A stretch of DNA of 64,000 nt from Mobula hypostoma (taxonomy: Eukaryota), in NCBI RefSeq assembly GCF_963921235.1, contig NC_086097.1:49292001-49356000 (forward strand), written 5' to 3'. This document shows positions 1 through 60,380 of this stretch, piece by piece; the stretch's first letter is position 1, and each line of letters starts with the position of its first letter. The translations under genes were made by a program, and so were the position numbers. Below the pieces are notes generated by a model. The model saw nothing but the letters and a program-made list of their open reading frames with translations. It was not told where the DNA came from and did no database searches.

Positions 1-315
1 GCCATCAGGTTGGAGGCTACCCAGACGGAATATAAGGTGTTGTCCCTCCAACCTGAGTGTGGCTTCATCTTTACAGTAGAGGAGGCCGTGGACAGACATG
101 TCAGAATGGGAATGGGATGTGGAATTAAAATGTGTGGCCACTGGGGGATCCTCCTTTCTCTGGCAGACAGAGCGTAGATGTTCAGCAAAGCGGCCTCCCA
201 GTCTGCGTCGGGGCTCGCCAATATATAAAAGGCTACATCGGGAGCACCGGACGCAGTATATCACCCCAGCCGACTCACAGGTGAAGTGTTGCCTCACCTG
301 GAAGGACTGTTTGGG
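1..315 (-). mobile_element. Penelope-like element fragment (GIY-YIG region), inverted arm running off the window start
   Basis: Near-identical reverse complement of ~844-1158; minus strand encodes the GIY-YIG region (VIYCVRCSRC..LYIGE, HLIFRLGSLQPDG). Confidence 0.9.
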
Positions 316-324
316 AAGGACTGT

Positions 325-1188
325 CTGACTCTCACAGCTATCTGGACTATTCCTCTTCTCACCCTGTCTCTTGCAAAAACGCCATCCCCTTCTCGCAATT
401 CCTCCGTCTCTGCCGCATCTGCTCTCAGGAGGAGGCTTTTCATTCTAGGACGAGGGAGATGTCTTCCTTTTTTAAAGAAAGGGGCTTCCCTTCCTCCACT
501 ATCAACTCTGCTCTTAAACGCATCTCCCCCATTTCATGTACATCTGCTCTCACTCCATCCTCCTGCCACCCCACTAGGAATAGGGTTCCCCTGGTCCTCA
601 CCTACCACCCCACCAGCCTCCGGGTCCAACATATTATTCTCCGTAACTTCCGCCACCTCCAACGGGATCCCACCACTAAGCACATCTTTCCCTCCCCCCC
701 TCTCTCTGCATTCCCTACGCAACTCCCTTGTCCATTCGTCCCCCCCATCCCTCCCCACTGATCTCCCTCCTGGCACTTATCCGTGTAAGCGGAACAAGTG
801 CTACACATGCCCTTACACTTCCTCCCTTACCACCATTCAGGGCCCCAAACAGTCCTTCCAGGTGAGGCAACACTTCACCTGTGAGTCGACTGGGGTGATA
901 TACTGCGTCCGGTGCTCCCGATGTGGCCTTTTATATATTGGCGAGACCCGACGCAGAATGGGAGACCGCTTTGCTGAACGTCTACGCTCTGTCCGCCAGA
1001 GAAAGCAGGATCTCCCAGTGGCCACACATTTTAATTCCACATCTCATTCCCACTCTGACATGTCTATCCACGGCCTCCTCTACTGTAGAGATGAAGCCAC
1101 ACTCAGGTTGGAGGAACAACACCTTATATTCCGTCTGGGTAGCCTCCAACCTGATGGCATGAACATTGACTTCTCTAACTTCCGCTAG
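325..1188 (+). pseudogene. Frameshifted Penelope ORF remnant with GIY-YIG endonuclease
   Basis: GVIYCVRCSRCGLLYIGET..RFAE, LEEQHLIFRLGSLQPDGMN in ORF 286..1188; upstream parts lie in other frames (e.g. 459..761). Confidence 0.88.
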
Positions 1189-1479
1189 GACCCACCTCCC
1201 CCTCGTACCCCAGCTGTTACTCCTTTTTATGCACACATTCTTTCTCTCACTCTCCTTTTTCTCCCTCTGTCCCTCTGAATATACCTCTTGCCCATCCTCT
1301 GGGTCACCCCCCCCCGTCTTTCTCCCTAGGCCTCCTGTCCCATGATCCTCTCGTATCCCCTTTTGCCTATCACCTGTCCAGCTCTCGGCTCTATCCCTCC
1401 CCCTCCTGTCTTCTCCTATCATTTTGCATCTCCCCCTCCCCCTCCAGCTTTCAAATCCCTTACTCACTCTTCCTTCAGT

Positions 1480-1517
1480 TAGTCCTGACGAAGGGTCTCG
1501 GCCTGAAACGTCGACTG
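1480..1517 (+). ncRNA. Minimal type I hammerhead ribozyme in Penelope 3' repeat
   Basis: UAGUC-CUGACGA-AGG(GUCUCGG)CCU-GAAA-CG-UC/GACUG: both core boxes present, stem I UAGUC/GACUG, stem II AGG/CCU, palindromic ACGU in place of stem III, predicted cleavage after C1512. Confidence 0.85.
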
Positions 1518-1814
1518 CGCCTCTTCCTATAGATGCTGCTTGGCCTGCTGCGTTCACCAGCAACTTTGATGTATGTTGCTAGAAGTGCATTCACAAGTTT
1601 TCATCCCACCTACACTATGTGTGAAACTTCTCCTCTGGACTTGTTATCCCAATGATTGGGCAATTCTCAGTTGTTCCTTACACATCTACAATCAAGGCAA
1701 GAATTGTTTTGAAAAAATGCACAGAAAGCAATCTCCCGTCAATAACACTGAAAGCACTATATTGCAGCAGAATCATATTGAAAGTCCACCTCTAAAATCA
1801 GGAGCAGAACACAA

Positions 1815-6704: not shown

Positions 6705-7477
6705 TGACTGTCACTATGTTCTATCCATTGCCTATCCTTCCTCACAGTCTCTCTACACTCTGCATCTACTTTTACACCTACTGTCCCATCCTCTGATCTA
6801 TCACTCTAGTTCCCAACCCCCTCCCCAACAGCTCTAGCAAACCTGCCCGCAAGGATATTCGTCCCCCTCTGTTATTAAACTGCTGATTCCATGTATGGAT
6901 TTACATGGTTATAAATTTTTAAACTGTGGTGTTTTATTGCCACACACAAAGTACCAAGTTTTGCCTGGACAAAGAAAGAATTTCATCATCATAACCTTAG
7001 TGTGCTCAGTTAACCAAGTTAAAACATAATTCATTAGAGCACGAACATGAATATTGGCCATAATTTAGCACTTTTACTGACAATCCTGTGTGAGGTGATA
7101 ATGTCTTTACATTATCATTCTCTGTAATGCATCCAGAGAAAAGCTTTATTACTGGCATATATTTAATCAATTTGATATTTCAGATATTAGATTCAATTCA
7201 AATACCATTCAGCATCAAGCTAAAAGAATCAATTAGCCCTAATGAATGTACTTTCTCATTTTATATTTGCTCATGGTTGGTGTTTTCTTCACAAAGCCAC
7301 TGATTTCCCTCTCAAGACAGACCATGTTTTTGCCAGTTCTACCACCATGCCTATGAATGTTTTCCAAATTTCCAGTGTCCTTCCAAAATAATCCATTATT
7401 TTCCTACATAAAGTATTTTGCACTGTAAAAAAAATTAAGCTGCAATTTTGATGTAAAGCAATATGTATACAGTTACA

Positions 7478-7625
7478 AACACAAAATACTCTGCAGATGC
7501 TGGGGTCAAAGCAACACGCACAACACGCTGGAGGAACTCAGCTGGTCGGGCAGCATCCGTGGAAACGTTGACTGTTCATTTCCACAGATGCTGCCCAACC
7601 TGCTGAGTTCCTCCAGCATATGGTG
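7478..7625. mobile_element. Penelope-derived fold-back mini-element
   Basis: Arms GCTGGAGGAACTCAGCTGGTCGGGCAGCATCCGTGGAAA / TTTCCACAGATGCTGCCCAACCTGCTGAGTTCCTCCAGC; 16-bp TSD with 2 mismatches at 7462-7477 and 7626-7641. Confidence 0.82.
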
Positions 7626-8635
7626 TATATATACAATTACATTTCTATTTATGGTTAGTATGAAAATTCAGCACAGAAATCCCAATCCCTTGAGCCTGGA
7701 TTTAAGATGTACTGTAAAATATAAATATTCAAAGGGCAGTCATAAAGACTGCCTTTTTTCCTCTTATGTTAAATGAAAGATTTTTAACTACATGGCTAGT
7801 TTTGTGTTGGCATCTTTTAACAATTGACAAACTAGCACCTGTATACTGTATATTAATATGCATAACTCCTTTCAAAGTCAGTGTTATTGTGGACTTGGAA
7901 AATCTCATCAATTCTTTGTTTTGAAGGCTATCTTGAGAAAACTAACTTGCAAATAAATGTCATAATATGAAATCAGCTAAATACTGAAGGTATTTTCAAC
8001 AGTTCAACAGTCTCTCATGGCAACTTTGCTATTGTGAGCTAAAACTCCTGAGCTATCATTTATCACAAGAGTCTCCCTGTTCCAGCTGTACATCATTCTC
8101 TCTAATGAACTAAACAACTGCACAAAAAGCATCATCAACATGAGAGGGAAATAAAAAAAAACACACTAGTCAATGAGCAGATATTTGTATTGGTGGGAAA
8201 TAGGCATTAAATTAAATCGAGTGGGTTCAATGAACATTTTTTACTTGAAAACATTTTATCTTTTAAATATTATAATATACCTTCTATATACACATTTTAA
8301 TTTTACGCTTCTTACAGTTTATCTTGAAAAAAATATTAACAGAACTTGAAGCCAGTCCAAAATTCTGAATTCCTGATCAGGACTCATCTTCCAATATTTC
8401 ATGTGTAACTCTGAAACATCTGTTAATTAAATGTTATGCAAAAGATTGTGACACTTAGTGGTTTTGAATGAAACTTCCAGCTGTTAGCTGTTTAAACAAC
8501 AGAGGTCCCAGATTCATATACTGAGACCATCAAGCAAGGTTAAACTTATCAAAGAATTGTCATTGTGAATCTCTTGCTTTGTTTAGGAAGCACACCGCAT
8601 ACAAAGCTCCCATTTCCACTGCGTTACATTGCAGA

Positions 8636-16258: not shown

Positions 16259-17292
16259 GAATGGGCAAAAAAGTGGCAGATGGAATACAGTATTGGGAAG
16301 TGTACGATCATGCATTTCGGTAAAAGGAACAATAGTGTAGACTATTATCTAAATGGGAAGAAAATTCAAACATCAGAGGTCCAAAGGGACTTAGAAATCC
16401 TCATGTAAGATTCCCAGAAGGTTAATTCACGGGTTGAGTCTGTGGGAAAGAAGGCAAATGCAAAGTTGGCATTTATTTCAAGGAGAATAGAACATAAAAA
16501 CAAAGAGATAATACTGAAGCTTCCTAAGACACTAGTCAGGCTGCACTTGGAGTATTGTCAACAGTTTTGGGCCCCTTAACTCAGAAAGGATGTATTGTCA
16601 TTGGAAAGAGTCCAGAGGAGGTTCACGAGGATGATTCTGGAAATCACAGGGTTAACATATGAGGAGGGTTCGGAGCTTTGAGCCTGTACCCACTGGAATT
16701 TAGAAGAATGTGTGGGAATCTCATTAAAACCTACTAAATGTTGGAAGGGCTGGAGGGAACTGCCTCAAAATTGAGGGGTGACCTTCTAGAACAGAAGTAA
16801 AGTGGAATTGTTTTAAGCCAAAGAGTGGTGAATTGGTGGTTCTGCAGTGGAAGCCATGTCCGTGGGTATATTTAAAGTGGAAGTTGACAGTTGTATTGGT
16901 GCATGGCCAAGTGGTTAAGGCGTCAGTCTAGTGATCTGAAGGTCGCTAGTTCAAGCCTCAGCTGAGGCAGGTTGTTGTGTCCTTGAGCAAGGCACTTAAC
17001 CACACATTGGTCTGCGACGACACCGGTGCCAAGCTGTATGGGTCCTAATGCCCTTCCCTTGGACAACATCAGTGGCGTGGAGAGGGGAGACTTGCAGCAT
17101 GGGCAACTGCCAGTCTTCCATACAGCCTTGCCCAGGCCTGCACCCTGGAAACCTTCCAAAGCACAAATCCATGGTCTCACAAGACTAACGGATGCCTATG
17201 AAATGACAGATCAGCTGTGATGAAATGGCGGAGCAGACTCGATGGGTTGAATGGCCTTACTCTGCTCCTATGTCTTATGGACTTATGGTCTT
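16259..17292 (+). mobile_element. 5'-truncated CR1 LINE inserted antisense into the older CR1
   Basis: EWAKKWQMEY, LYK/LVRLHLEYCQQFWAP-like remnant; 3' tail CTGCTCCTATGTCTTATGG(A/T)CTTAT; ATAAG repeated at both junctions. Confidence 0.8.
16898..17199 (+). mobile_element. tRNA-derived SINE with CORE-like central domain
   Basis: A box TGGCCAAGTGG (16904-16914), B box AGTTCAAGCC (16948-16957), then TGTGTCCTTGAGCAAGGCACTTAAC. Confidence 0.8.
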
Positions 17293-19843: not shown

Positions 19844-21143
19844 CAGTGGCATGCAAAAGTTTGGGCACCCCTGGCCAAAATTTCTGTTACTGTGAATAGC
19901 TAAGCGAGTAAAAGATGACCTGATTACTAAAAGGCATAAAGTTAAAGATGACACATTTCTTTAACATTTTAAGCAAGATTACTTTTTTTATTTCCATCTT
20001 TTACAGTTTCAAAATAACAAAAAAGGAAAAGGGCCTGAAGCAAGGGCAACCTGCATGGTCATTACTGTTTTTTTTTTTACAGACGGTGTGATGTTTGCTT
20101 CCAGAATTTGCTGATATTTAATTGAATTTATTCTTCCCTTTACCAGTGAAATGTTCCCTATGCCACTGGCTGCAACACAAGCCCAAAGCATGATCGATCC
20201 ACCCCTGTGCTTAACAGTTGGAGAGGTATTCTTTTCATGAAATTCTGCACCCTTTTTTCTCCAAACATACCTTTGCTCATTGCAGCCAAAAAGTTTTATC
20301 TTAACTTAATCAGTCCACAGGATGTTTCCAAAATGCATCAGGCTTGTTTAGATGTTCCTTTGCAAACCTCTGATGCTGAATTTTGTGGTGAGGATGCAGA
20401 GAAGGTTTTCTTCTGATGACTCTTCCATGAAGGTCATATTTGTGCAGGTGTCACTGCACAGTAGAACAGTGCACTGCCACTCCAGGGTCTGCTAAATCTT
20501 CCTGAAGGTCGTTTGCATTCAAACAGGGCTTTTGATTTGCCTTTCTAGCAATCCTACAAGCAGTTCTCTCTGAAAGTTTTCTTAGTCTTCCAGACCTGAA
20601 CTTCACCTCCACCATTCCTGTTAACTGCCATTTCCTAATTACATTATGAACTGAGGAAACGGCTACCTGAAAACGCTTTGCTATCTTCTTATAGCCTTCT
20701 CCTGCTTTGTGGGCATCATTTATTTTAATTTTCAGAGTGCTAGGCAGCTGCTTAGAGGAGCTCATAGCTGCTGATTGTTGGGACAAGGTTTGAGGAGTCA
20801 GGGTATTTATAAAGCTTTGAAATTTGCATCACCTGGCCTTTCCTAACAATGACTGTGAACAAGCCATAGCCTTAACAAGCTATTTAAGGTCTGAGACCTT
20901 GGTAAAAGTTATCGAAGAGCTCAAATCCCTTGGGTGCCCAAACTTTTGCATGGTTCTCCTTTTCTTTCTTTCCACTCTAAAATTGTACAAAACAAATAAT
21001 ACACTAATCTTGCTTAAAGTGTTGAAAAGAATGTTTCATTTTTAACTTTATGACTTTTGGAGATCCGTTCATCTTCTACTCATTTAACTATTCACAGTGA
21101 CAGAAATTTTGACCAGGGGTGCCCAAACTTTTGCATGTCACTG
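19844..21143 (-). mobile_element. Tc1 transposon, internally deleted
   Basis: TIR CAGTGGCATGCAAAAGTTTGGGCACCCCTGG.. at both ends; TA TSD; N-terminal HTH in ORF 20451..20786 (GEGYKKIAKRFQV, RSGR) and MLWAC..YQQILE remnant. Confidence 0.92.
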
Positions 21144-21490: not shown

Positions 21491-21659
21491 TTAATGACAA
21501 ACAAGTTGCAGGAGCGGAGGGTAATAGAGAGAGTGAAAGGACAAATGGGATTGATCCCCGAAGGCTAACATGTTCCTCGTGGGCTGAATGCCCTCTTCCT
21601 GCATTGTTGCACAGCTTCCTTGCCCTTGAACTTTAAAAACAATGGAACCCATGTGATTA

Positions 21660-22316
21660 TGCAAACACGAGGAATTCTGCAGATGCTGGAAATTCAAGCA
21701 ACACACATCAAAGTTGCTGGTGAACGCAGCAGGCCAAGCAGCATCTCTAGGAAGAGGTACAGTTGATGTTTCGGGCCGAGACTCTTCGTCAGGACTAACT
21801 GAAGGAAGAGCTAGTAAGAGGTTTGAAAGTTGGAGGGAGAGTGGGAGATCCAAAATGATAGGAGAAGACAGGAGGGGGAGGGATGGAGCGAAGAGCTGGA
21901 CAGGTGATTAGCAAAGGGGATACGAGAGGATCATGGGACAGGAGGCCCTGGGAGAAAGAAAAGGGGGAGGGGCAAGGGGTATAGTCAGAGGGAAAGAGGG
22001 AGAAAAAGGAGAGAGAGAAAGAACGTGTGTATATAAATAAATAATGGATGGGGTACGAGGGGGAGGCAGTGCATTAGCGGAAGTTTGAGAAGTCAATGTT
22101 CATGCCATCAGGTTGGAGGCTACCCAGACGGAATATAAGGTGTTGTTCCTCCAACCTGAGTGTGGCTTCATCTTTACAGTAGAGGAGGCCGTGGATAGAC
22201 ATATCAGAATGGGAATGGGATGTGGAATTAAAATGTGTGGCTACTGGGAAATCCTGCTTTCTCTGGCGGACAGAGCGTAGGTGTTCAGCAAAACGATCTC
22301 CCAGTCTGCATCGGGT
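21660..22316 (-). mobile_element. 5'-truncated Penelope-like element with complete 3' terminus
   Basis: GIY-YIG C-terminus (RFAEHLRSV..LEEQHLIFRLG); decayed hammerhead at 21760-21797; perfect 14-bp TSD AACCCATGTGATTA at 21646-21659 and 22317-22330. Confidence 0.92.
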
Positions 22317-24396: not shown

Positions 24397-25812
24397 TATA
24401 TTCAGCCCCCATGACTATTTTCACATTTTACTATCTCATTTTTAAAATTTGAAGTAGGATATTTGAGCCAGTCTACAAAACATTGTGCATTGTGTCAAAT
24501 CAAAATAAAAATGCCAAAACCTGACAACGATTTACAAAAATTAAGAACCAAAATTGAGAAGCTGAAAAAGTATTCATCCCCTTTGTAATAACTATACTAA
24601 CTTTCCTCAGGTACAATACTGTATATTACCCAATTTGTTGATGTAGAAAATAGGAGGATCACCTGAATAAATACTCCCTCTCTCTGTAAGGTCCAACAGT
24701 ATGGGAGATTTTCAACAGAGCAAATCAAAATACAGACAAAAGAGCATTCAAGGCAGGTCGGGGAAATGATAATAGGGAAGCACAGATCTGGGGGAAGGAG
24801 ACAAGACCACCTCAAATGCAGTGGAAATACGTCAGAGCTCAGTGCAGTCCATCATGAAAAGGTGAGAAAAATATAAATACCGTCTAAGCTACCGGAGAAG
24901 AACTACATTTGTAAGAGAGGCTACTGTGATGCCAACGGTCACTCTGAGTGAGATGCAGAAATCAGTGGCTGCAACTGGAAATGAAGTTCATGGCTCCACA
25001 ATCTCTAAGGCCTTACTCAGAAAGGAAGAAGCCCTGACCAAGAAAAAAATATATCCTTGTTCGTAAAGACTTTGCAAAATGTCGCTTAGGAGATACCATA
25101 AAGATGTGGAAGAAGGTCTTGTGGTCAGATGAGATAAAGTAGAACATTTTGGCCTCAACACTAAGCAGTACATGTGGCATAAATCTAATACTGCGCATCA
25201 GTCAGTTAAGACCATCCCATTGTAAAGTATGGCGGAGGTAGCATCATGGTATAACATGCTTTTCAGCAGCAGGAACTGGAAATCTGGTCAGGGTTGACGA
25301 GAAAATGAATGCTGCTAAATACAAAGGGATCCTGGATAAAAACCTGCTAGCCTCTTGCCAGAAAGCTTAAACTGGGGAGGAAGTTTGTCTTTCAGCAGGA
25401 CAATGACCCAAAGCACCATGAGTCCTTGAGTGGCCCAGTCAGAGTCCTGACCTTAACCCGATAGAACATCTCTGGCAAAACCTCAAGATTGCTGTCCACT
25501 GCTCCACAACCCACCTGGCACAACATAAGCAATTTTGCAAGGGGGAATGGGCAAATCTCACTCCATCACATTGTACAAAGCTAATAGAGACTTATCCAAA
25601 AAGACAACCGGCTGCAATAGCTGTGAGAGGTGGTTCAACTAAATACTGAGCAAAGAGAGTTGAGGACTTTTGAACTGTTGATAATTCAGTTTTTGAATTT
25701 TCAGTTCTTCATACTTTGCAATTTTCCCTGTTTTGGGGCTGTACTATGAAAAAAGGAGCATGTGATTCATAAATAAAAATTCTCAGTTAAATTGATCAGA
25801 ATCCCTGGTTGT
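24397..25812 (+). mobile_element. Degenerate Tc1 transposon
   Basis: TKEHSRQV, VLWSDE, QDNDPKH, SPDLNPIEHLW, STKY* remnants at ~24730-25649; termini eroded. Confidence 0.82.
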
Positions 25813-26075
25813 ATACTCATTTTATATACAGTATATATACATACACATTTATTTTTATTATTTACAGTATCTATAAAAAGTATTTACCTGCCTTGGAAGT
25901 TTTTAGGTTTTTTTGTTTCATAACATTGAATAACAGTAGATTTAATTTGGCTTTTTTTGACACTGATCAACAGAAAAAGGCTCAAATTGAAAACAGATCT
26001 CTGAAAAGAGACCAAAACTAATTACAAATATAAAACACAAAATAATCGATTGCATAAGTATTCACTCCCTTCAAG

Positions 26076-27078
26076 TCAGTATTTAGTAGATGCACCTTTG
26101 GAGGTAATTACAGCTTGAGTCTGTGTGGATAGGTCTCTATCAGCTTTGCACATCTGGACACTGCAATTTTTTCCCCATTCTTCTTTACAAAACTGCTCCA
26201 GCTCTGTCAGATTGTATAGGGATTGTGAGTGAACAGCCCTTTTCGAGTCCATCCACAAATTCTCAATTGGATTGAGGTCTGGACTCTGGCTTGGCCACTC
26301 CAGGATATTAACTTTGTTTTTAAGCCATTCCTGTGTAGCTTTGGTTTTATGCTTGGGGTCATTGTCTTGCTGGAAAACAAGACACTGTTCTCTTGCAGAC
26401 TGCATCAGGTTTTCCTCCAAGATTTCCCTGTATATTGCTGCATTAATTTTACCCTCCACTTTCCCAAGCCTTCCGGGGCCTGCTGCAGTGAAGCATCTCC
26501 ACAGCATGATGCAACCACCATCATGCTTCACAGTAGGGATGGTGTGTTTTTGATAATGTGTAGTGTTTGGCTAACACCAAACATAGCCTTTAGTCTGATG
26601 GCCAAAAAGCTCAATTTTGATTTCATCCTACCCTAGAACCTTCTTCCGGCTGGCTTCAGAATCACCCAAATGCCTTCTGGCAAACTCAAGCCAAAATATC
26701 ATGTGAGATTCTTTTTTCCAACAGTGGCTTTCTCTTTGCCACTCTCCCATTAAGTTGCAACTGTTGAAACACCTGGGCAACAGTTGTTCTAAGTGCAGTC
26801 TCTCCCATCTCAGCTACTGAAACCTGTAACTCCTCCAGGATTATTATAAGTCCTTTAGGGCCTCCCTCACTAGTCATCTTGCACAGTCACTCAGTTTTTG
26901 AGGACAGCCTGCTCTAGGCAGATTTACAGCTGTGCCTTATTCTTTCCATTTCTTGATGATTGACTTAACTGTACTCCAAGGGATATTCAGTAACCTGGAA
27001 ATATTCTTCTATCCATCTCCTGACGTACTTTTCAATAACATTTTTTCAGAGTTACTTGAAGTGTTCTTTTGTCTTCAT
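26076..27078 (-). pseudogene. Tc1 DD34E transposase pseudogene
   Basis: MKTKEH start; KHDGGCIMLW, QQDNDPKH, WPSQSPDLNPIENLW, STKY* with frameshifts and stops. Confidence 0.88.
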
Positions 27079-27331: not shown

Positions 27332-30300
27332 CTATAAAAAAACCCCTGTACCCCTTAAAAACACTAAAAATACCCGGACTTGTGCTCTCTCACCCATGCC
27401 CAGCAACCCTTTTAATGTGAATTCCTGCATCCCCAACTCCCTTAATTTATTTCTCATCATCTCTCTCTGTATCCCATACTTCCTGCAACTCAGAACTACA
27501 TGTTCTACTGACTCCTCTTCCTGACATTCCTCACACAATCCTGTCTGGTGTTTCCCCATCATTTTCAATGTTTTGTTTAATGCACAGTGCCCCAGCTTTA
27601 ACCTAGTCCACACAATTCCCTCTCTTCTGTTTCCATTACCTACCCTAGTAACTGCAACACTCTTTTGTATTTGATATAAATGCCTCCCTTTCCCCCCCCG
27701 TCCCATCTTTCTTGCCACATTCGGTTGACTTTTTCCCAGATTACACACTTAACCTCTGCTTTACTGATACTAATGTGCATTTCCACATTTTCTTTCTTTA
27801 ACGCTCTCTTTGCCAACTCATCCACCCTCTCATTCCCCTTCACCCCTACATGTGCTGGAACCCATAGAAATTTTACCTGACCTCCCTGATTTGCAATTCT
27901 TGTAACTAACTGAAGGACTTCATAAAGTACATCTTGCCGACTGTTTGAGTGAAAAGACCTTAAACTTGCTAGAACTGAGGATGAATCTGAACATATCAAT
28001 GCTTTGGATGGTCTGGCTTTCTGCACCCATTGCAACGCAACCAACACTGCCAGCATCTCCACTGTAAACACCCCTAACTTATTAGATGTTCTTCTGCTGA
28101 TTCCAATTTCTTTTTCTGGTATTACCACCCCAAACCCTGTCACTCCTGTTTCAGGTTCCTTCGCACCATCTGTATAAATGTGAGTATAATCACTATACTT
28201 TTCCATCACATGACAGTTAAATGCATTTACCAAATCTGTTTTATATCTTTCTTTCCTTTTTACCTCTAACAAATGCCAGTCTATGTCAGGCCATACAAGC
28301 TTCCATGGAGCTACAACCGGATAAACTACTGAAGAACTTACCCTCAGATCAAACACTCCACATTCTTTCGCGATATCATTCCCTACCCGACTAAAGGTAT
28401 CCCTCTGAAACCTCCCATTTTCCCAGTACTCCTGCAACACTCCTTTAGTAGGGTGAGAATCATTGTGCCCCTGCAAGTTAGCCCAGTAGTTTGCCATCAG
28501 TTGCATCCTTCTTAGTTCCAAAGGCATTATTCCCATTTCTACCTGTAGGGCTGACACTGGTGACGTTTTAAAAGCCCCACTGCACACTCTCAAAGCCTGA
28601 GCCTGAATCACATCCAGTTTCCTTATAAGAGACCTAGCTGCTGATCCATATACTATATTTCCATAATCCAATACAGATCTTACTAAAGCCACATACATTC
28701 TCTTCAAAGCTGAACAACTTGCTCCCCATTCCCTACCAGTCAAACATCTCATCACATTTATTACTTTTTTACATTTCTCCTCAACTTTCCTGATATGGTC
28801 TGCCCATGTTAATCATGAATCAAATATAACTCCCAGAAATTTAAATGATGCAACCCTTTCTAATTCAACCCCATACATCCTTAACTTCTTCCCTACCTCA
28901 ACCCTTTTCCTGGTAAAAAATACAGTTTGAGTTTTATCTACTGAAAATCTACATCCCCAATCATAACCCCACTCCATCACTTCATCAATTGCTTCTTGTA
29001 GTTTCCTGATTATATAGTCCATGTTCCTGCCTCTTTTCCACAAGGCCCCATCATCCGCAAACAGTGACCTATCTATATCCACTGGTACCTTTGTGAAGAC
29101 ATCATTGATCATAATGATGAAAAGTAATGGGCTAATCACACTACCTTGAGGTGTGCCATTTTCCACTATGTACTGTTTTGATAATTCTGATCCAATCCGA
29201 ACTTGAATTTTTCTACCAAACAAAAAATCTTTAATCCAATTAAAAACTCTCCCACCAACCCCCATCTTGTGCAGTTTAATTAATAATCCTTCCTTCCACA
29301 TCATATCATAGGCTTTTTCAATGTCAAAGAACACTGCCACTACTGACTCTCTATTTGCCTGGGCCTTCCTTATTTCAGTCTCTAACATAATCACTGAGTC
29401 CATGGAATTCCTTCCCTTTCTAAAACCACTCTGATAACTTGCCAGCATTCCCCTTTTCTCAAGCTCATATGATAACCTTTCTGTTATCATCCTTTCCATT
29501 ATCTTACATATACTTGATGTTAATGCAATTGGTCTGTAGCTAGTGGGTTTTGACAGATCCTTGCCAGGCTTCCTTATTGGAATTACTACTGCTTCTTTCC
29601 ATGCACTTGGTAATCTTCCATCCTCCCACACTCTGTTATAAAAATGCAGCAACTTCAAGAGTGCTCCTTCTCCTAGATTTTTTAGCATCACAGAGCATAT
29701 CAGATCTTTCCCTGGGGAGGTTGGTCTCGATCTCTTTATTGCTCTCACCATTTCTGCTAATGTAAATGGATCATCAATTATATCATCTGTTCCTTCCCTC
29801 CTGCTTAACACACCTGGGTGTTGGCTCATTATTCTTTCCCTCCTCCTTCTCCCTTCTTCAGACAAATTTTCTGAACTGTGTATCAGTACAAATGACTTGG
29901 CCATGACCTCAGCCTTATCCCTACTGGAGACTGCAGTTTCCTCCTCAGATATCATTACTGGATATTCCCATTCCCTTCTATCTCCTCCCATCCTCTTAAT
30001 CATTCCCCATATCTCTCCCACAGGTGTTGTTCTTCCTACCTTGTCGCAAAAACTCCTCCAACTTGCCCTTTTAGCTTGACGTATAGTTCTTCTCACCACT
30101 GCCTGTGCTTTCTTATATTGAACCAAATGCTGCATATTATGGGTTCTTTTAACTAGCCTGAATGCTCTATTTCTGTTTTTTACAGCCTGACAACATTCCT
30201 CTGTCCACCATGGTACCAGTTTTCTATTCATCCTATTTTTACTCCTAGGTATAGACCCTTCTGCTGCCATGATAATTGCTGAAGTCACCTGACTGTTTAA

Positions 30301-31080
30301 TTCATCTACATTTCCAGAAATATCAATCTTTGTCAACCTTTCTTCACTCAACTTCTGGAACTTACCCCAATCAGCTTTTTCAAACACCCACTTTGGGGTT
30401 CCGCCACCTGGTCTTACTTCAACTCTTTCACCCACTGAACACAAAACTGGGTAGTGATCACTGCCTACTGTTGAAGCAGTCCAAACTCCCCAGTTACTAA
30501 TGCCAGCCAAGGTATTAGACACTAACGTAATATCTAACACTGACTCAGTTCCTGTTGTTATATCTATCCTTGTGCCGCTACCATCATTCATACACACCAA
30601 ATCCCTTTCTTCCATCAAATCTTCAATTACCTTTCCATTTGGATCTGTAATCTGATCCCCCCATATTGTGCTATGAGCATTGAAATCTGCACACCACACT
30701 ACTTTATGTCTATTTTGTCCTTGTATCTTTAATAGGCTGTCCAAATCCAACCTTTTACATGGATTGTAGTAGTTAATTATAACCACTCCCTCCCCTCTCT
30801 CCCACACTTCCACCACTATGTATTCCTGATCATCTCCTTTCTCCAGTACCCTATATGGTATACCTTGCTTGATTAACATAGCACAACCCCCTCCTCCCCC
30901 TAGATTTCTATCTTTCCTTATCATTGTATACCCATATACCACAAAGTCTAAAGTTGGTTTCAACCAAGTTTCCTGAATACACACTACATCCGGTTTTACA
31001 ACCATTTCTTTAATAAAGTGCTTGAATTCCTGGCTATTGGCCAGTAAGCTCCTTGCATTCCATTGTAAAAGAATCACCAT
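27332..31080 (-). pseudogene. LINE ORF2: APE endonuclease, RT, RNase H, CCHC (nonsense at 28813, frameshift near 27695)
   Basis: LQWNARS, IQETWL, DFNAH, SDHYP; YRPIALTS, FFDIEKAYD, GTPQGS, LFADD; IYTDG, ICSDS, WVPAHVGVKGNERVD; CEEC..HVVLSC. Confidence 0.93.
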
Positions 31081-31088
31081 AATTAGTA

Positions 31089-32317
31089 TTAACCAACACA
31101 TGACACTTCCTGGCTTGACTGATTACTGAGGTTCTCCCTCACTTCCTCCCATGTCAGTCCTACTAACCCTAAATGGTTTACTGCTGCTTTTACCACCAGC
31201 TGAATTTTGTCACTTTTTGACTTTACCTCAGCAGTACATTAATCACTCCTGCAATGAATGTTACTAGAGCCTTTTTGTCTACATAAATCCTGTCATTTGT
31301 TCTTTGTTGCATCTCTCGTATCCCTATTGCTCCCTGTTCATTAGGAGCATTTTTCTGTTCTCTTGACATTCTTACAGCTTCTGCATAAGTGATCTTTCTT
31401 TTCACTCTTATTTCTTGAATTTTAGTCTCCCGTCTCACAACCTCACACCCACTATATGCAACATTATGAGCTCCTCCACAATTGCAGCATTTTGGTTGAA
31501 CTCCTGTTCCGCACTTTCCATATTCATGATCACCCCCACATCTAGCACATCTCCTCTGCCTTTTACAGTTTTTAGCCACGTGTCCAAACCTTTGACAATT
31601 ATAGCACCTCAATGGCTTTGGCACATACACCCTTACTGGGTAACTCATGAAACCCAGGAACACCTTCCTTGGCACTCTTTCTTCTTCAAATTCAATCAAT
31701 ACTGATTCACTTTCTTTTTTCACTCCCTCCTTTGTTGTTTTCAGTCTTTGAACATTCATTACTTCCCCTCCTTTGATATTCCTCTTGATCTCCTCCATAT
31801 TTATACTCATTGGTATCCCCGTGATCACTCCTTTACAACCACTGTTTTGTGCTCCCACCCTCCCAGTGTATTCCATCTTGCATTTTCCTATCTCTTTTAG
31901 CTTGAGTGCTTTCTCAAGTTGTTCCTCATTCGCACATCTTACCAATAAGTTGCCATCATTAAGGACTTTTGCAAATACTATTTCCCCTATCTTATTTGTC
32001 AGAGTTGTTGTTAGCACAAACGGGTTAATTTTCTTCATATATCCCTGAGCCTTCTCATTAAACCTAATTATGACACCACCTCTCTGAGCTTGTTCATCTT
32101 CCTCACTTTCAGAGCTTTCTCCACTATCATTTCTTATTCTTTTATTCCCTTTGTCTTGGTTTTTATTCATCCGACCCCTCACTACCTCCTCATTCCCTTT
32201 ATTTCTCCCTTCACAATAATCCACCTCTCCCCAGCTGCCTACCTCTGGTCCCAAGTCTCTATCCCTCTCCTTCTCCACTTTCTTTCCCTCAACCCCGCCT
32301 CTTATCTTGTCCGCCAT
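31089..32317 (-). pseudogene. LINE ORF1, gag-like with CCHC zinc knuckles (one frameshift near 31238)
   Basis: CYNCQRFGHVAKNC, CARCGGDHEYGKC, CCNCGGAHNVAYSGC; the C-terminus TAEVKSKSDKIQ...VSCVG* continues in another frame to TAA at 31089; the start codon (32317 vs 32404) is uncertain. Confidence 0.85.
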
Positions 32318-32628
32318 TACCGGACCCACACAACCCCCTCCCAGCAATTTCCATTCCTTCTCCACTCTCTTTCCCTCAACAGGTTCCAAAACACACTCAC
32401 GCATCTGCCAGCAGGTGGACCTTCCAGGTACAGGTGTATTTTTACTACAATCAATTGAAACACCTTGACTGCACACAGGTGATCCCCACTTGACTAATTA
32501 TGTGACTTCCAAAACCAATTGGCTGCACCAGTGATGATTTGGTGTTTCATATTAAAGGGAGTGAATACGTATGCAATCAATTATTCTGTGTTTATATTTG
32601 TAACTACTTTAGATCACATTGTAGAGAT

Positions 32629-34865
32629 AACTGAGAGGCTAGTGTACCTCTTGGAAAGTAGAGGTATGGTGGCTACATATCAAAGTGGGTACAGGAAAGG
32701 AAGGAATACTATGGATCCAGTGTTGTGTCAAGAGGATGAAATAAGAAAAGTTCAAATAACTAAAGAGACAGTGGTTGCAGTTTTTTTTGACGTTGAGAAA
32801 GCTTATGATCTGTTATGGAATGAGGGGCTCCTAATCAAGCTATGTTTAATGGGAATGGGGGGGTGGTGTTCAATTGGGTTAAGGACTTTTTAAATGGGAG
32901 AACTATTCAGGTGAAGATAGGATCAGAGCTATTAAGTCAGTATATTGTAGAAAATGGGATGCCTCAGGGGAGTGTGGTGAGTCCAACTTTATTCTCCATT
33001 TTGATAAATGATATATTTGTAAATATTCCAATGGAAGTGGGGAGGTCATTGTTTGCAGATGATGGGGCTTTGTGGAAAAGAGGGAGAAATATTGAATGTA
33101 TAGTTATGAAAATGTGAGATGGAATTAATCAAGTTGAAGAGTGGGGAACAAAGTGGGGTGTTAAATTTTCAGTGAAGAAAACAAAAGCCATATTCTTTAC
33201 AAGGAAAAAGCTTGGGGGACTTAATTTGAATCTGTATGGAAGTAACCTGGAGAGAGTTGAAAGTTTTTGGTTTTTGGAAGTGCACTTTGACTTGAGATTA
33301 ACATGGAGAGAACATGTTAGATATGTAGTTACTAAATGTAAAAATGTGATAAATGTCATGAGGTGTCTTGCTGAATTGGGGTGCTGATTTTGCATCACTG
33401 AGGTATACTTATGTGGTGTTAGTAAGATCAAGATTAGACTATGGAAGTATTGTATACGGGTCAGTAGCAAAACCTGTACTAGCAGAACTGGATATCATGC
33501 AAGCTCGGGCTCTAAGGGTGTGCTTGGGAGCGGTTAGAATTTCCCCAGTGTGTGCACTCCAAGCTGAAGCAAATGAAATGTCATTGGGGCTGTGGAGTAA
33601 ACAGCTGGAGGCCAATTACTGGATTAACTTAAGGGGGCATGGCGATAGCCATCCTACAAAAAGGGTGTTGCAGACATGCTGGGAGAAGGAGAGGACACAA
33701 AAAGAAAGTTTTGGCTGGACAGGAGAGCAAACAGCAAAAGATATGGGTGTATACGATAAAGAGTTTTGTCCAAGTGTGGTGTGGCCTGTCAGACCTTTCT
33801 GGGTATTAGAAAATCCCTCTGTAGATTTGGAATTGCTTAAGATTAAACACAGTAATAAGATGGCTGATATACTCAGTGAATATCATAGTTATAGGAAATG
33901 TAATTATAAACACATACAGATTTTTACGGATGGATCAAAGGATCCAGAAACAGGTGCAACAGGGTCTGCAATTGTTGTAGCAAGTTATCAAGTGGAAATT
34001 AGCAAGAGAATGCTTGATTGCTTGAGTGTATATGCAGTTGAAATGTTTGCCATATTGTTAGCACTAGAATGGAGTGAGCAGGTTGATTGTAATAATATTG
34101 TGATATGTAGCGATTCTGTATCGGCCCTTGCAAGCATTAAGGTGGGTACAGCTAGAGGTCACCAGGATCTGCTTCATGAAATCCTGTTTGCAAATTCAAG
34201 ACTGGCTAGACAAGGCAAAAATATTGCATTCATGTGGGTTCCAGCACATTCAGGTATTACGGGAAATGAGACAGCAGATAGGCCGGCAAAAGCAGCAGTC
34301 AAAAAAGGATCTATAGAGGTCAATATTAAACTATCAAAATCAGAGGGGAAGAGCATAGTGTGGAGAAGGATAAATCAACAGTGGCAGCAGCATTGGGATA
34401 GAGCAATAAAAGGAAGATATTTACATTCAATTCAGAACAGAGTAGGTATGGGAAGAAGTAGGGGAGTAAAGCGGAAAGAGCAAGTAATTATAAGTAGACT
34501 GAGAATTGGGCACAGTAACCTTAATGGAACTCCAGCCATCATAAATAAACATCCAACAGGTTTTTGCGATCTATGTCAGGAGACTGAAACACTAGAGCAT
34601 ATCCTTATTTCATGCAGGAAATTTGCACAGGAAAGACAACAAATGTTACAACAACTACGCAAAATAGGACTGGTAGAGAACAGTGTTAAAGGTTTATTGG
34701 AACATGGGGAAAGTGATCAGGGGAGGAAATGGTTGATTAGTTTTTTAATGGTGACGGGACTGGAAAGATGGCTTTAAAATGAATGGACAATGAGGGACAA
34801 TAAATCCTGTAGATGGCAGTAATGCAACACAGTGGATGCCAACTGCCGTAAAAACTCAAGGAAGA
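32629..34865 (+). mobile_element. 5'-truncated I-group (Nimb-like) LINE (RT, RNase H, CCHC) inserted in the Tc1 TIR
   Basis: FFDVEKAYD, GMPQGS, LFADD, IFTDGSKD, WVPAHSGITGNETAD, CDLC..HILISC; 18-bp TSD with 3 mismatches at 32611-32628 and 34866-34883. Confidence 0.9.
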
Positions 34866-36747
34866 AGATTACTTTGAAGAGATTTGTTTTCACTTTGGCA
34901 CAAAAGAGTCTTTTTCTGTTGATTAGTGTCAAAAAAAGCCAAATTAAATCCACTGGGATTCAATGCTGTAAAACAATAAAACATGAAAACTTCTGGGGGC
35001 GGGGGTATGAATACTTTTTATAGGCATTGTATAAACAGTATTTTATAAATTGTATTTATTATAAACAGTATTTTACATGCAACTACTATATAGACATCCA
35101 CAGCATGGTAAATTTTAAATTGCCCTTTCAAGTCTAAAAATTTAATCGCTGTGGATGATTTCTTACTCTTGTGGGATAATGTCTTTCCTGACAACCAGAG
35201 TCATCTGCTTGGCAGGTGAGACTTGTGGCTATGAAACAATCTCAGGCCCAGGGGCCTTCCCCATGATGGTTATAGGAGTTGACTCTTGGACTGCAGGAAG
35301 TGATACTGACAGATCTGGACACCTTTCTTCTGGACATGTTGGCATCCTGAACAGTGCATGGCAAGCTGTGTGATCTACTGATCTAACCCCAGTCACCAGA
35401 CAAAGCTTTGAACCAACGCTTTCATTTTGACCACACTAGATGACTAACATTTTAGTTCTCAAGTTGGATGTTACAAAAATTCTCAATCCTCAGATAAGGC
35501 AACCTCCATCAAGGGCAAGTTCATTGCCCTTGGGAGAACTGGAATTTCTGATGCACATTCCAGCCATCTGGGGTGAACATAGAACAGAGAGAAATTTACA
35601 GCACATTACAGGCCCTTCGGCCCACAAAGTAGTGCCCACAATGTAACCTATGTGGTCATGTAGACCTAAGATAATGTGGAGTCTTTTCTGACTATCATCT
35701 CTGCCCTTCCAGGGAGACTTTTGAATTGTATTAAGGAGAATATGTCCAGAAGACTGTCCTCTTTTGTAAATTTTTCAGGTATTTTCTTCTCCGAGGGTAA
35801 ACAGGACAACCCATCAGCATTTCCATGATTAGTTGTCCTCTTGAATTTGACCTTGTAATTGTGTCCTTCAGGAAACAGAGCCCATCTCTGCGTTCATCCC
35901 ACTGTTGCTAGTGGAACACCTTCTGCGGGTTGAAAATGGACACCAGTGACTGATGATCAGTAATGAGGTTAAATTGGTTCAAATGTTTTATGCCCCAAAC
36001 TAACCTCAAGGCCTCTCTATTAATCTGAGTATAGTTTTTCTCTGCAGTGGTAAGGGAACGCGATGCAAAGGCTGTGGGGCGTTCACTTCCAACAATCATA
36101 ATATGTGACTTGACTGCACCTATAACATAAGGCGAGATGACACAGGCAAGCTTCACTTGACAATGTGGATCATAATGTGTGTGTACGGTGTCTGATGTCA
36201 TCATTTTCTTTACCTTTTGGAAAGCCACCTCACACTATTTAGTCAGTTGCTATTTCTTCCTGATCTGTAGTAATGAGTTCACAGTAGCCAGGATTGGCAG
36301 GAACCTGTTATAGTAATTGACAAATCCTAAAAATGACTGCACCTGTGACATGTCCTTTGGCCTTGGGACATCCACCACTGCTTGAATTTTCACAGCACAC
36401 ATGTGTAACGCTTGTGTGTCAATGATATGCCCACAGTAAGCAAATTAGAATTTGATCTTGCACCTATGTGCTTGAAGCATCAGGGCCCATTTCTGCATTT
36501 GTGCTGCTACTGTATGGATCTACTTTTGGTACTGGGTCAATGGTGATCTTAAGATCACCTGAGATCCCGACAGACCCATTCTTCATGGCTACTGGGAGCA
36601 CTGGTGTTGCCCATGGGCTCCATTCAACCTTGGAAAGTATTCCTTCAGCCTCCATGCGATCTAGCTCACTGGCTACTTTATCAGAAGTGGTAAGGAACTG
36701 GGTGGGCTTCATAAAAATGGTATTACATTTTTGTTTAACACCGGTAA

Positions 36748-56054: not shown

Positions 56055-59000
56055 ATGCTGCGGGAAAAGCTGTGTAAACTCCGGAGGGCGGAACATCTAC
56101 GACAGCAAAGAAGGAAGAAAGAGAAAAGGCGAGCACAGTTTGTGAGAGATCCATTCAGCTTCACCAGGACTCTTCTCGGCCAACAAAAATCTGGTATACT
56201 ATCCAGCTCAAAGCCAGAGGTAGAGGAGTTCCTGCGGGAGGCACACAGTGACCCACGGAGGGGTCAGGGACTAGGAACCAATCGGGCTGTGCGTAGACCG
56301 GAAAATCCATCAATTGAGCTGAATGTGAAGGAGCCTACATGGCAGGAAATCCAGGACATCAACCGGAAAGCTAAAGCATCAGCTGCCCCAGGCCCAAGCA
56401 GCATACCTTATAAGGTGTATAAGAAATGCCCAAAACTTCCTCGGAGGCTGTGGAAGGTCATGATCTGGGCCAAAGGTACTATTCCATCAAGTTGGAAATT
56501 GACAGAGGGATGTTTTATTCCAAAGGAAGAGGATTCTTCCACAATTGCCCAGTTTAGGACAATTTCTCTCCTGGATGTGGAATGTAAGATTTTCTTTTCT
56601 GTGCTCGAAAGAAGGCTGACTTCTTACATCAGCGGTCCCCAACCACCGGGCCATGGACCGGTACCGGGCCGCAAAGCATACACTACCGGGCCGCGAGGAA
56701 GTGATATGATTTGGCGATATGAGTCAGCTGCACCTTTCCTCATTCTCTGTCACGGCCACTGTTGAGCCATTACGCATGCGAGGTCATTACCACAGCGTCA
56801 TCCATTTCAGCGCAGGAAGGAGATCAACTCCGCGAGCTTGCAAATGACGGCGGGCTGGAAAGTATGTTTGACATAACATCTCTACCGGCATTCCGGATCA
56901 AAGTCAAGGCTAAAAATCCTGAGATAGCCACGAAAGCACTGAAAACATTGCTTCCATTTCCAACATATCTCCGCAATGAATGCAATGAAAACTAAATTGC
57001 GGAATAGACTGGACATAAGAAACCCCCTTCGAGTATCGCTGTCTCCCGTCACCCCTCGATAGGACCGTCTTGTTGCAGGAAAACAAGCCCAGGGCTCCCA
57101 CTGATTCAGTGATATTGGTGTGTTGCAATGATTTTATATGTTCATACGGGGAAAATATGTGCTGCGTGTTTAATATCCAAACGTTACTTAAAATGTTATG
57201 ATGCTATTGTCTTATAAAACCATATAACAATTACAGCACGGAAACAGGCCATCTCGGCCCTTCTAGTCCATGCCGAACGCTGCTCTCACCTAGTCCCACT
57301 GACCTGCACTCAGCCCATAACCCTCCATTCCTTTCCTGTCCATATACCTATCCAATTTTTCTTTAAATGATTAATATCGAACCTGCCTCTACCACTTCTA
57401 CTGGAAGTTTGTTCAACACTTACTTCAAGCTCCCCTGTCCTCCCCTGATAGTTGACTTATCACTATATTCATGCGAGGAAAATATGCGCTGTGTGTATAA
57501 TATTAAATTTGTTAGATAATCCCTTTTAGAAAGGAAATTGAGTGCATTAGCCACTTATCACCGATATTCCGGTAGTGATTAACAACCCCCACCCCCCCCC
57601 GAAAAGAATCGCCAAAAATTATTTTGGGGGGTGGGGGGGGGAATCGTACACGCATGCGCACTGGTGCCCGCGCACGGCCTCATGGTAATCGTAGTCTTTC
57701 TCGGGGTAAACCCAGCGTATTTGACTGCACTGCTAGTCTTGTCCATTGGCAACCCTACCACCTCCCACCCCCAGTTGGCCGGTCCACAAGAATATTGTCA
57801 ATATGAAACCGGTCCGCAGTGCAAAAAAGGTTGGGGACCCCTATCTTACATGACGCAGAACCACTATATCAATACATCCATCCAGAAAGGCAGTATTCCA
57901 GGCTTTTCAGGGTGTCTGGAACACACCTCAATGATTAGCCATTTGATTCGTGAGGCCAAGCAGAAAAAGAGTGACCTAACAGTTGTCTGGTTAGACCTCA
58001 CAAACGCCTATAGGTCTATTCTACATGACCCCATGCTAGAAGGACTTGACCACTACTACATCCCAGTGGCTATTCGAGACATGATCACCAGCTACCTAGG
58101 AGGATTCAAACTCAGATTTACATCAGCCCATTTCACAACTAGTTGGCAGGTCCTCCAGAAAGGGATTCCAACAGGGTGCACCATCTCCCCCATTCTATTT
58201 ATTATGGGAATGAATTATCAGCAGCAGAAAATGTAACCCGCGGCCCCATGCTGGAGTCGGGTATTGTTCAGCCGGCTCTACGAGGGTTCATGGACGACAT
58301 CACTATAACAACTGTGTCATATGTCCAAGCAAGATGGGTATTGGAAACCCTGGACAATGTAGCCACTTGGGCGAGGATGTCCTTCAAGGCCAAGAAGTCC
58401 ATGTGTATGGTGATCGGAAAGGGTAAAGTTATAGCAAGTTTAGCCTCCAAGTTCAGGGTGAGGTCATCCCTTCCATCGAAAATAACCTGAAAATGCTTGG
58501 GGAAGTGGTTTAATGTGTCACTGACAGATGGGGACAATGTCACCAATGCTGTGAAGCAGACAGACGAATGGTTGAAGAAGATCGACAAATCCAGACTTCC
58601 CGGTAAATTCAAGACCTGGCTGTACCAATACGGCATTCTGCCCAGGCTTCTCTGGCTCTTCACACTTTATGAGTTCCCCATGACTGCCATAGAGGGCATC
58701 CAGAGGAGAACCAACAAGCACCCGCAGAGATGGTTGGGAGTTCCCCCAAGCTTCTCTTCAGTGGGCCTCTATATTCGATTTGGGCAACTGCATCTTCCCC
58801 TTTCATCTGTTGTGGAGGAATTCAAGGTGGCAAAATGCAGAGCCTTATTAAGCTTGAGAGATTCCAATGACGTCTTGGTAAAGCATACAGGCGTTACAAC
58901 CAGATCTGGGCACAAGTGGGCAGCCAACGCAGCTGTGGAGCAGGTGGTGTGTTCTCTGAAGCTGCGAGATATCATTGGCAACCTCTGTGTCAGGCGGCAA

Positions 59001-60024: not shown

Positions 60025-60380
60025 TTTCCCCTTCTCCTTCCCTTTCTCCACGATCCGCTCTCCTCTCCTATCAGATTCCTTATTCTTCAGCCCTTTGCCT
60101 TTTCCACCTATCACCTCCCAGCTTCTTACTTCAACCTTTCCCCCATCCACCTACCTTTCCTCTCACACGGCTTCACTTACCCCCTTCTAGCATGCGTTTC
60201 TACCGCTCCCCCCCCACCCCACCCTCTTCTCACCCCATTCTTTCTAGTCCTGATAAAGGGTCTCGGCCAGAAATGTTGATACTTTGTTCCTTTCTATAGA
60301 TGCTGCCTGACCTGCTGAGTTCCTCCATCATTTTGTATGTGTTATTCTGGAATCCAGGACCTGCAGAATTTCTTGTGTTT
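60025..60380 (+). mobile_element. Penelope 3' repeat fragment with decayed hammerhead (60245-60280)
   Basis: Pyrimidine-rich tract, TAGTCCTGATAAAGGGTCTCGGCCAGAAATG, AGATGCTGCCTGACCTGCTGAGTTCCTCC. Confidence 0.8.

Follow-up and report, generated by a model that had tools for sequence, protein, structure and literature searches.

A minimal hammerhead ribozyme motif in the 3′ repeat of a truncated Penelope-like element of the ray Mobula hypostoma

The Penelope-like element and its surroundings

The window, that is, the whole stretch of 64,000 bases of Mobula hypostoma DNA that was analyzed, carries on its plus strand a 5′-truncated and frameshifted Penelope-like element (approximately 327–1584) with an adjoining inverted copy. 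The 5′ truncation lies at about 327. The element starts with an open reading frame fragment (327–719, plus strand) that is probably derived from the C-terminal side of the reverse transcriptase region; it was assigned by its position, because Pfam gives no match for it. Behind a frameshift near 720–760, the C-terminal part of the reading frame (754–1188, plus strand) encodes a CX4CxxC linker (CKRNKCYTC) followed by a GIY-YIG endonuclease (GVIY...YIG), the stop codon of which is at 1186–1188. The Pfam match of the endonuclease to GIY-YIG is weak (E 0.027, below the cut-off), and Atlas puts it among GIY-YIG clusters at 0.96. Residue 76 of the endonuclease is R, where the sister copies have H. 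Rays supply the closest proteins, and among the longer ones those of Mobula (94%), Hypanus (76–88%) and Rhincodon (67%) are nearest. The longer homologues P0006 and P0013 contain RVT_1, which scores below the curated cut-off, followed by GIY-YIG. The ray models P0003, P0004, P0014 and P0017 (mucin-2, divergent protein kinase domain 1C, chitinase domain-containing 1, NYAP1-like) also contain the endonuclease; its presence within host-named models is the result of either exonisation or annotation error. The CX4CxxC linker is likely to mark the Neptune or Nematis clade, the reverse transcriptase core being missing from this copy.

The reading frame is followed by untranslated 3′ repeat sequence with 79% pyrimidines (1189–1479, plus strand), the hammerhead motif (1480–1517, plus strand) and the 3′ end of the element past the predicted cut site (1518–1584, plus strand). 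The ribozyme begins 292 bases after the GIY-YIG stop codon, and 72 bases lie between the cut site and the end of the copy at about 1584. The copy does not have the further tail of 35–40 bases that is carried by three other copies (C, B- and F-). The inverted, likewise 5′-truncated partner (1–315, minus strand) is the reverse complement of 844–1158 with 95.6% identity. It continues beyond the start of the window, so that its hammerhead, if kept, would lie beyond the window, on the opposite strand. Two tandem pLTRs around a whole reading frame are absent: the element is truncated and frameshifted and has one same-strand repeat, which makes an active element less likely and leaves its membership of the family untouched. 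No tandem array was found at the locus and the window contains a single complete motif, so the locus does not qualify as a retrozyme.

A search of the window with nhmmer gave seven matches at E < 0.001, including the copy at 1480. Five copies span the core (A, which is the copy at 1480, and B-, C, D and E); the hammerhead descriptor described below is passed by A alone, the other four of the five being broken. The sister copy C (21655–22316, minus strand) is 88% identical over 640 bases, has its own inverted partner (22104–22315) and carries a damaged hammerhead (21760–21797) in the same place relative to the GIY-YIG stop codon. The damaged hammerhead D (60245–60282, plus strand) has G8 and position 11.1 changed to A and stems III and I broken, while in E (61750–61787, minus strand) U4 and G5 are changed and stem III is broken. 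A separate mini-insertion at 1805–2014, assigned to neither strand, is composed of two inverted element ends that form a hairpin of 78% identity. Its minus-strand copy (1805–1932) is missing one core base, and its plus-strand copy, from about 1936, has neither core nor stem II. In both mini-insertions, at 1805–2014 and at 7475–7628, two inverted element ends meet, and the junction lies within the ribozyme or immediately behind it. No second complete same-strand core within the insertion was found inside the window. A heterodimer of the core at 1480 with the half-site at 1936–1948 was rejected; its predicted probability is 0.0, and the half-site is predicted to lie buried in the 1848–2010 hairpin.

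Other mobile elements are also present in the window. Minus-strand frames for a zinc knuckle, AP endonuclease, reverse transcriptase and RNase H at 27643–34774 make up a long LINE-type element, which abuts a plus-strand partial copy with reverse transcriptase and RNase H, apparently in an inverted arrangement. Fragments of Tc1/Sleeping Beauty-type transposase, LTR-type RNase H and reverse transcriptase are located at 20454–20828, 25422–26570, 35911–36234 and 57583–58233. A borderline tRNA match at 16902–16964 (29.5 bits, cut-off 29) is probably the head of a tRNA-derived repeat. Among 150 scanned of the 173 stop-to-stop frames of at least 75 amino acids, 12 gave matches, all of them to mobile-element domains, and no host gene was found at this scale, which shorter exons and introns would escape.

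The hammerhead motif and its predicted fold

The motif at 1480–1517 is 38 bases long. It matches a type I descriptor that asks for the core boxes, at least two pairs in stem II, at least four pairs in stem I and a palindromic or hairpin stem III. The descriptor has this one match on both strands of the 64,000 bases, and a match with palindromic stem III was obtained in none of 200 windows simulated with a first-order Markov model. Stem I is formed by TAGTC (1480–1484) and GACTG (1513–1517). The core boxes are CUGACGA (1485–1491) and GAA (1505–1507, or GAAA at 1505–1508), and they conform to CUGANGA and GAAA with a UH cleavage site. Stem III is the palindrome ACGU (1508–1511), and the GTC triplet (1510–1512) sets the predicted cut after C1512. 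All of these parts had been correctly located by the sequence-only reading, and its assignment of the motif as a minimal type I hammerhead in a Penelope-like 3′ repeat is borne out by the descriptor match and by the distance of 292 bases from the GIY-YIG stop codon.

The same reading had proposed AGG/CCU as stem II. This register has a predicted pair probability of 0.02 in the 38-mer and has to be replaced by 1493–1496/1501–1504 with a CUCG loop. The pairs G1493·U1504, G1494-C1503, G1495-C1502 and U1496·G1501 are predicted there with probabilities of 0.87–0.97. The stem I pairs reach 0.55–0.98 in the fold of the isolated 38-mer. Among the six aligned motifs the A1492-U1504 pair is kept in one and G1493-Y1504 in five. 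With A1492 unpaired, this base is the extra one between positions 9 and 10.1, and the pair 10.1–11.1 is G·U in this copy. A purine–pyrimidine pair is wanted at 10.1–11.1 of hammerheads. The description of the motif as intact thus holds for the catalytic positions, all of which are preserved in the copy at 1480–1517; it needs qualifying for the 10.1–11.1 pair, which is a wobble, and Rfam at its gathering threshold reported no hammerhead family for the motif. The folding z-score of the motif is −1.24.

Position 11.1 is U1504 here and C in copies C, E and B- and in two outside motifs, L001 and L006. In four public runs (X1, X5, X9 and X13), C at 1504 accounts for 20, 31, 19 and 72% of the depth, in contrast to position 1540, where the other letter makes up 71–97%. 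Private CpG decay as the origin of U1504 was rejected, as C is found in just 20, 31 and 19% in X1, X5 and X9, and in 72% in X13. The G·U pair at 10.1–11.1 is a common variant of the family, in which both letters are frequent. A search of the literature on the effect of G·U at this pair returned nothing useful. In X13, A at 1516 makes up 67% of the depth; for stem I to be kept, position 1481 would have to be U, as it is in L001 and L006.

The outside motifs were obtained with related-motif patterns, which matched once in metagenome, three times in viral and twice in genome sequences. Four of the matches (L002–L005) were dropped by eye as they do not have stems I and II. The remaining L001 and L006 keep both stems by two-sided changes and retain all catalytic residues. 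L006 (297–337), also a minimal hammerhead, comes from a Wolbachia assembly, in which its contig is short (363 bases) and of low coverage; it is likely to be host DNA. No Penelope-like protein was found on the L001 and L006 contigs, and the protein search of the viral contigs gave no match. Covariation was assessed on six sequences, copy B- being excluded from the alignment for its core deletion. Two pairs show two-sided change, a result equalled by 39 of 500 shuffles; the changes come from L001 and L006, which were found with patterns that fix part of the stems. The region 1480–1517 is a real minimal hammerhead motif of a Penelope-like element.

The predicted fold changes when the flanking sequence is included. 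In context, 1466–1478 is predicted to pair with the core at 1485–1496 (mean 0.84), and the stem I probability falls to 0.01. This pairing was equalled by 5 of 500 shuffles of the 40 upstream bases (5 of 200 in another set), the region having been picked after the fold was seen. The dimer that forms a double hammerhead has a predicted energy of −11.5 kcal/mol versus −30.3 kcal/mol for the best dimer of the 38-mer; these energies omit the tertiary contacts of the core. The upstream stretch 1461–1483 contains a pyrimidine tract, TACTCAC, which we take to be branch-point-like, and an AG directly before T1483. In copies C, D and E, as in A, pyrimidines and then AG precede TCC.

Abundance and decay of the family in public runs

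The contigs that could be placed on the 301 bases at 1410–1710 number 70,827 in X1, 47,695 in X5, 3,123 in X9 and 18,361 in X13. X1 and X5 are DNA runs, X9 consists of contigs guessed to be RNA and X13 is from organism C. The placement favors copies similar to the query, and some differences in X1 were left out of the counts. The depth is 1.4e7 on the motif versus 12.7 on the unique flank, a ratio that is not a copy number, and it drops to single-copy level after about 1600. The hammerhead-bearing ray family is very abundant, as the sequence-only reading had supposed, with 70,827 contigs in X1.

Loose ends of the placed contigs pile up at 1481–1483 and at 1515–1518 in all four runs, among the best 24 of 696 rows. 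These pile-ups at both edges imply that subfamilies with different flanks share the ribozyme block, bounded on both sides by stem I. This sharing suggests that the motif is conserved among the putative master elements. Among the same best 24 of 696 rows, none has loose ends at 1512/1513, the position of the cut. The ends at 1482–1483 are long, AT-rich and of low agreement (218 contigs in X1, 185 and 137 in X5, 213 in X13), which suggests that the outer edge of stem I, and not the cut site, is the starting point of many insertions. At the 3′ side two classes of ends occur in the copies, one at about 1580 and one with the tail beyond 1584. A few contigs jump back from 1509–1519 to 1456–1492, for example from 1515 to 1481 in three contigs of X1 and two of X13. 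These would be tiny ribozyme-only tandem repeats, that is, natural cis dimers, and they are rare.

At thirteen positions of the motif, a second letter reaches at least 3% in one run or another. Ten of the changes are CpG-type transitions, two are in loop II and one is at 1516. In the core, CpG changes in X1/X5 reach 5.9/6.5% of the depth at G8, 3.6/5.9% at G12 and 6.9/9.2% at C17; elsewhere they amount to 7–11% in stem III, 9–11% in the loop and 6–10% in the tail. As the core rates are about those of loop and tail, the inserted copies appear to decay without clear protection of the core, and many are still intact. The core rates are somewhat below the loop rates, which leaves room for weak selection on the core CpGs; non-CpG variants at 1489 and 1504 could account for the lower values at G8 and G12. 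The depth ratio across the cut site is 0.77 in X9, compared with 0.72 and 0.61 in DNA, so the fall is no larger, and core-broken letters are rarer in X9 than in the DNA runs. Both observations argue weakly against efficient cutting, X9 being made up of contigs guessed to be RNA.

Fate of the motif and comparison with known systems

Minimal hammerheads in the pLTRs of metazoan Penelope-like elements were described by Cervera and De la Peña in 2014 (PMC4209133). The passages of this source list as class traits type I topology, an extra nucleotide between 9 and 10.1, a palindromic 15.2–16.2, no loop III and a highly conserved G10.1-C11.1 pair. They name Xena, Poseidon and Neptune of fishes and report the class in fish, coelacanth, frog and reptile; cartilaginous fishes are not named in them. 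All five traits are present or nearly so at 1480–1517. The motif shares with the published ones the type I topology, the 5-bp stem I, the extra 9/10.1 base, the palindrome and the lack of loop III, as well as the setting, namely a repeat that flanks an RT/GIY-YIG element, with dispersed copies that are mostly solo and with close opposite-strand pairs. It differs from them in its stem II (4 bp here, 7–8 bp in the schistosome families) and in the pair 10.1–11.1, where this copy and much of the ray family have G·U and the class has G-C, as far as those passages go. The same passages describe the class as dimer-type, which agrees with the sequence-only reading, and report that a solo schistosome motif was inactive and that dimers cut weakly. 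The literature search yielded no paper on this ray family or on Penelope hammerheads of cartilaginous fishes, and no Penelope paper was among the 15 of 542 records listed for rays; subscription papers and the supplements of PMC4209133 may list some.

The element itself resembles those of the Neptune and Nematis clades. According to passages of 10.1101/2021.04.23.441226, a CX2-5CxxC Zn-finger in the RT-EN linker marks these clades, and EN+ Penelope-like elements show 5′ truncation, an adjoining inverted copy and an optional tail of 30–40 bases. The C-terminal GIY-YIG domain, the upstream linker, truncation, inverted copy, tail and pLTR hammerhead are shared with the ray element, whereas the ray copy has no RT core and one endonuclease His is R. 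Passages of 10.64898/2026.07.22.740005 describe non-LTR retrozymes, the hammerhead of which is derived from Penelope-like pLTRs and which are reported in the one chondrichthyan sampled. The type I hammerhead of Penelope-like pLTR origin is common to both; retrozymes, however, consist of units in tandem that lack coding sequence and have at least two ribozymes, whereas the ray copy is a single motif with coding sequence.

The Poseidon element PAc of the lizard Anolis carolinensis (Frangieh et al. 2024, PMC11167929) is a point of comparison for function. In the portions of this work used here, its hammerhead cut only with the protein of the element, cleavage depended on C3 and G8 with rescue, catalytic mutants still inserted in vitro, insertion started from the uncut RNA, and the cut site had no read ends. 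The ray family is similar to PAc, as described there, in that the hammerhead lies shortly upstream of the 3′ ends of the copies, the ends fall into two classes separated by the tail, and insertions would derive from uncut RNA. It differs in that PAc is a Poseidon element whose start codon overlaps stem II, while the ray element carries the CX4CxxC linker and its core lacks an ATG. Protein-assisted cleavage was demonstrated for PAc.

We propose that the motif at 1480–1517 is a terminal-repeat motif of a Penelope-like element that is carried passively in a truncated and frameshifted copy, and that this lone copy probably cuts little or no RNA. Stem III cannot be closed within one motif, as loop III is missing. 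In active tandem elements, by analogy with the published systems, two motifs in one transcript would pair ACGU with ACGU and swap their stem I strands, and each core of the dimer would cut the C17 of the other, weakly or with the help of the element's protein. Since 72 bases of the copy lie beyond the cut site, its RNA template was uncut there; in the copy and its sisters, 70–110 bases lie past C17. Reverse transcription would start 70–110 bases downstream of the ribozyme on RNA uncut at this site, each new copy would inherit the motif from the uncut template, and after insertion the copies would lose CpGs with no visible protection of the core. Against passive carriage, the catalytic positions are intact and such an abundant family could supply a partner in trans.

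The latter possibility leads to a different explanation, in which the dispersed copies are active as trans dimers or with protein help and cut sense read-through transcripts of host genes. We regard this as unlikely. The intact catalytic positions and the abundance of the family (3,123 contigs even in X9, which is guessed to be RNA) speak for it, as do the protein assistance demonstrated in the passages on the lizard element (PMC11167929) and the host-gene-named ray isoform models P0003, P0004 and P0014, which show that read-through models exist. The tandem retrozymes of Xenopus are reported to be excluded from introns and exons. On the other side, folding predictions put the double hammerhead well short of the best dimer and leave the core, once its flanks are included, tied up in other pairs; no host gene is seen in the 150 frames scanned, and, weakly given the nature of X9, the depth there falls at the cut site no more than in DNA and broken letters are rarer. 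The suggestion of the sequence-only reading that the motif could cut any sense transcript running through it is unsupported: inside the window this insertion has no second complete core on the same strand, the core is predicted to be shut, and solo motifs are inactive and dimers weak in the published account (passages of PMC4209133).

It is likewise improbable, though conceivable, that the 5′ edge of the ribozyme is a working boundary, at which 1466–1478 shuts the core in read-through RNA and from which, in place of the cut site, many short insertions start. The combination of this boundary with removal of 1466–1478 by the element's protein or by splicing at the AG before T1483 is held to be equally doubtful. 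A related explanation, which we consider slightly less probable again, is that the motif owes its retention to a non-catalytic function and not to cleavage, serving either as a fold that binds or stops the reverse transcriptase or as a splice or transcript boundary. The loose ends at 1482–1483 resemble 5′ ends of insertions at the outer edge of stem I and not the cut site, and copies A, C, D and E have a pyrimidine tract with AG ahead of T1483. In the Drosophila virilis Penelope, the 5′ side of helix I is where an intron ends (passages of PMC4209133), and catalytic mutants were without effect on insertion in vitro in passages of PMC11167929. This explanation has to face the retention of all catalytic residues across distant motifs, the C3/G8-dependent cleavage with rescue of the lizard motif (passages of PMC11167929) and, in X9, the lack of a spliced joint among the rows listed; catalytic and non-catalytic roles are moreover not exclusive. 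A chance look-alike within a repeat, for which the shortness of the motif, the lack of an Rfam match and the folding z-score of only −1.24 could be cited, is refuted by the 0 of 200 simulations and the subfamily-shared block that coincides with the motif, with the expected position in a Penelope-like repeat and the class traits also against it, and can almost certainly be dismissed.

As it stands, the finding is of little significance in itself, since it adds one ray family to a kind already described in 2014. In the passages of 10.1101/2021.04.23.441226, the role of the hammerhead in endonuclease-bearing Penelope-like elements is still regarded as open. If the 5′ edge of the ribozyme were indeed a working boundary, this would explain the tolerance of the genome for very many intact hammerhead motifs and would provide a switch for the role of Penelope hammerheads. 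The use of the family is as material: it is young and very abundant and is split between G-C and G·U at 10.1–11.1. It allows a strong test of selection against intact intronic copies and of the ends of insertions relative to the ribozyme.
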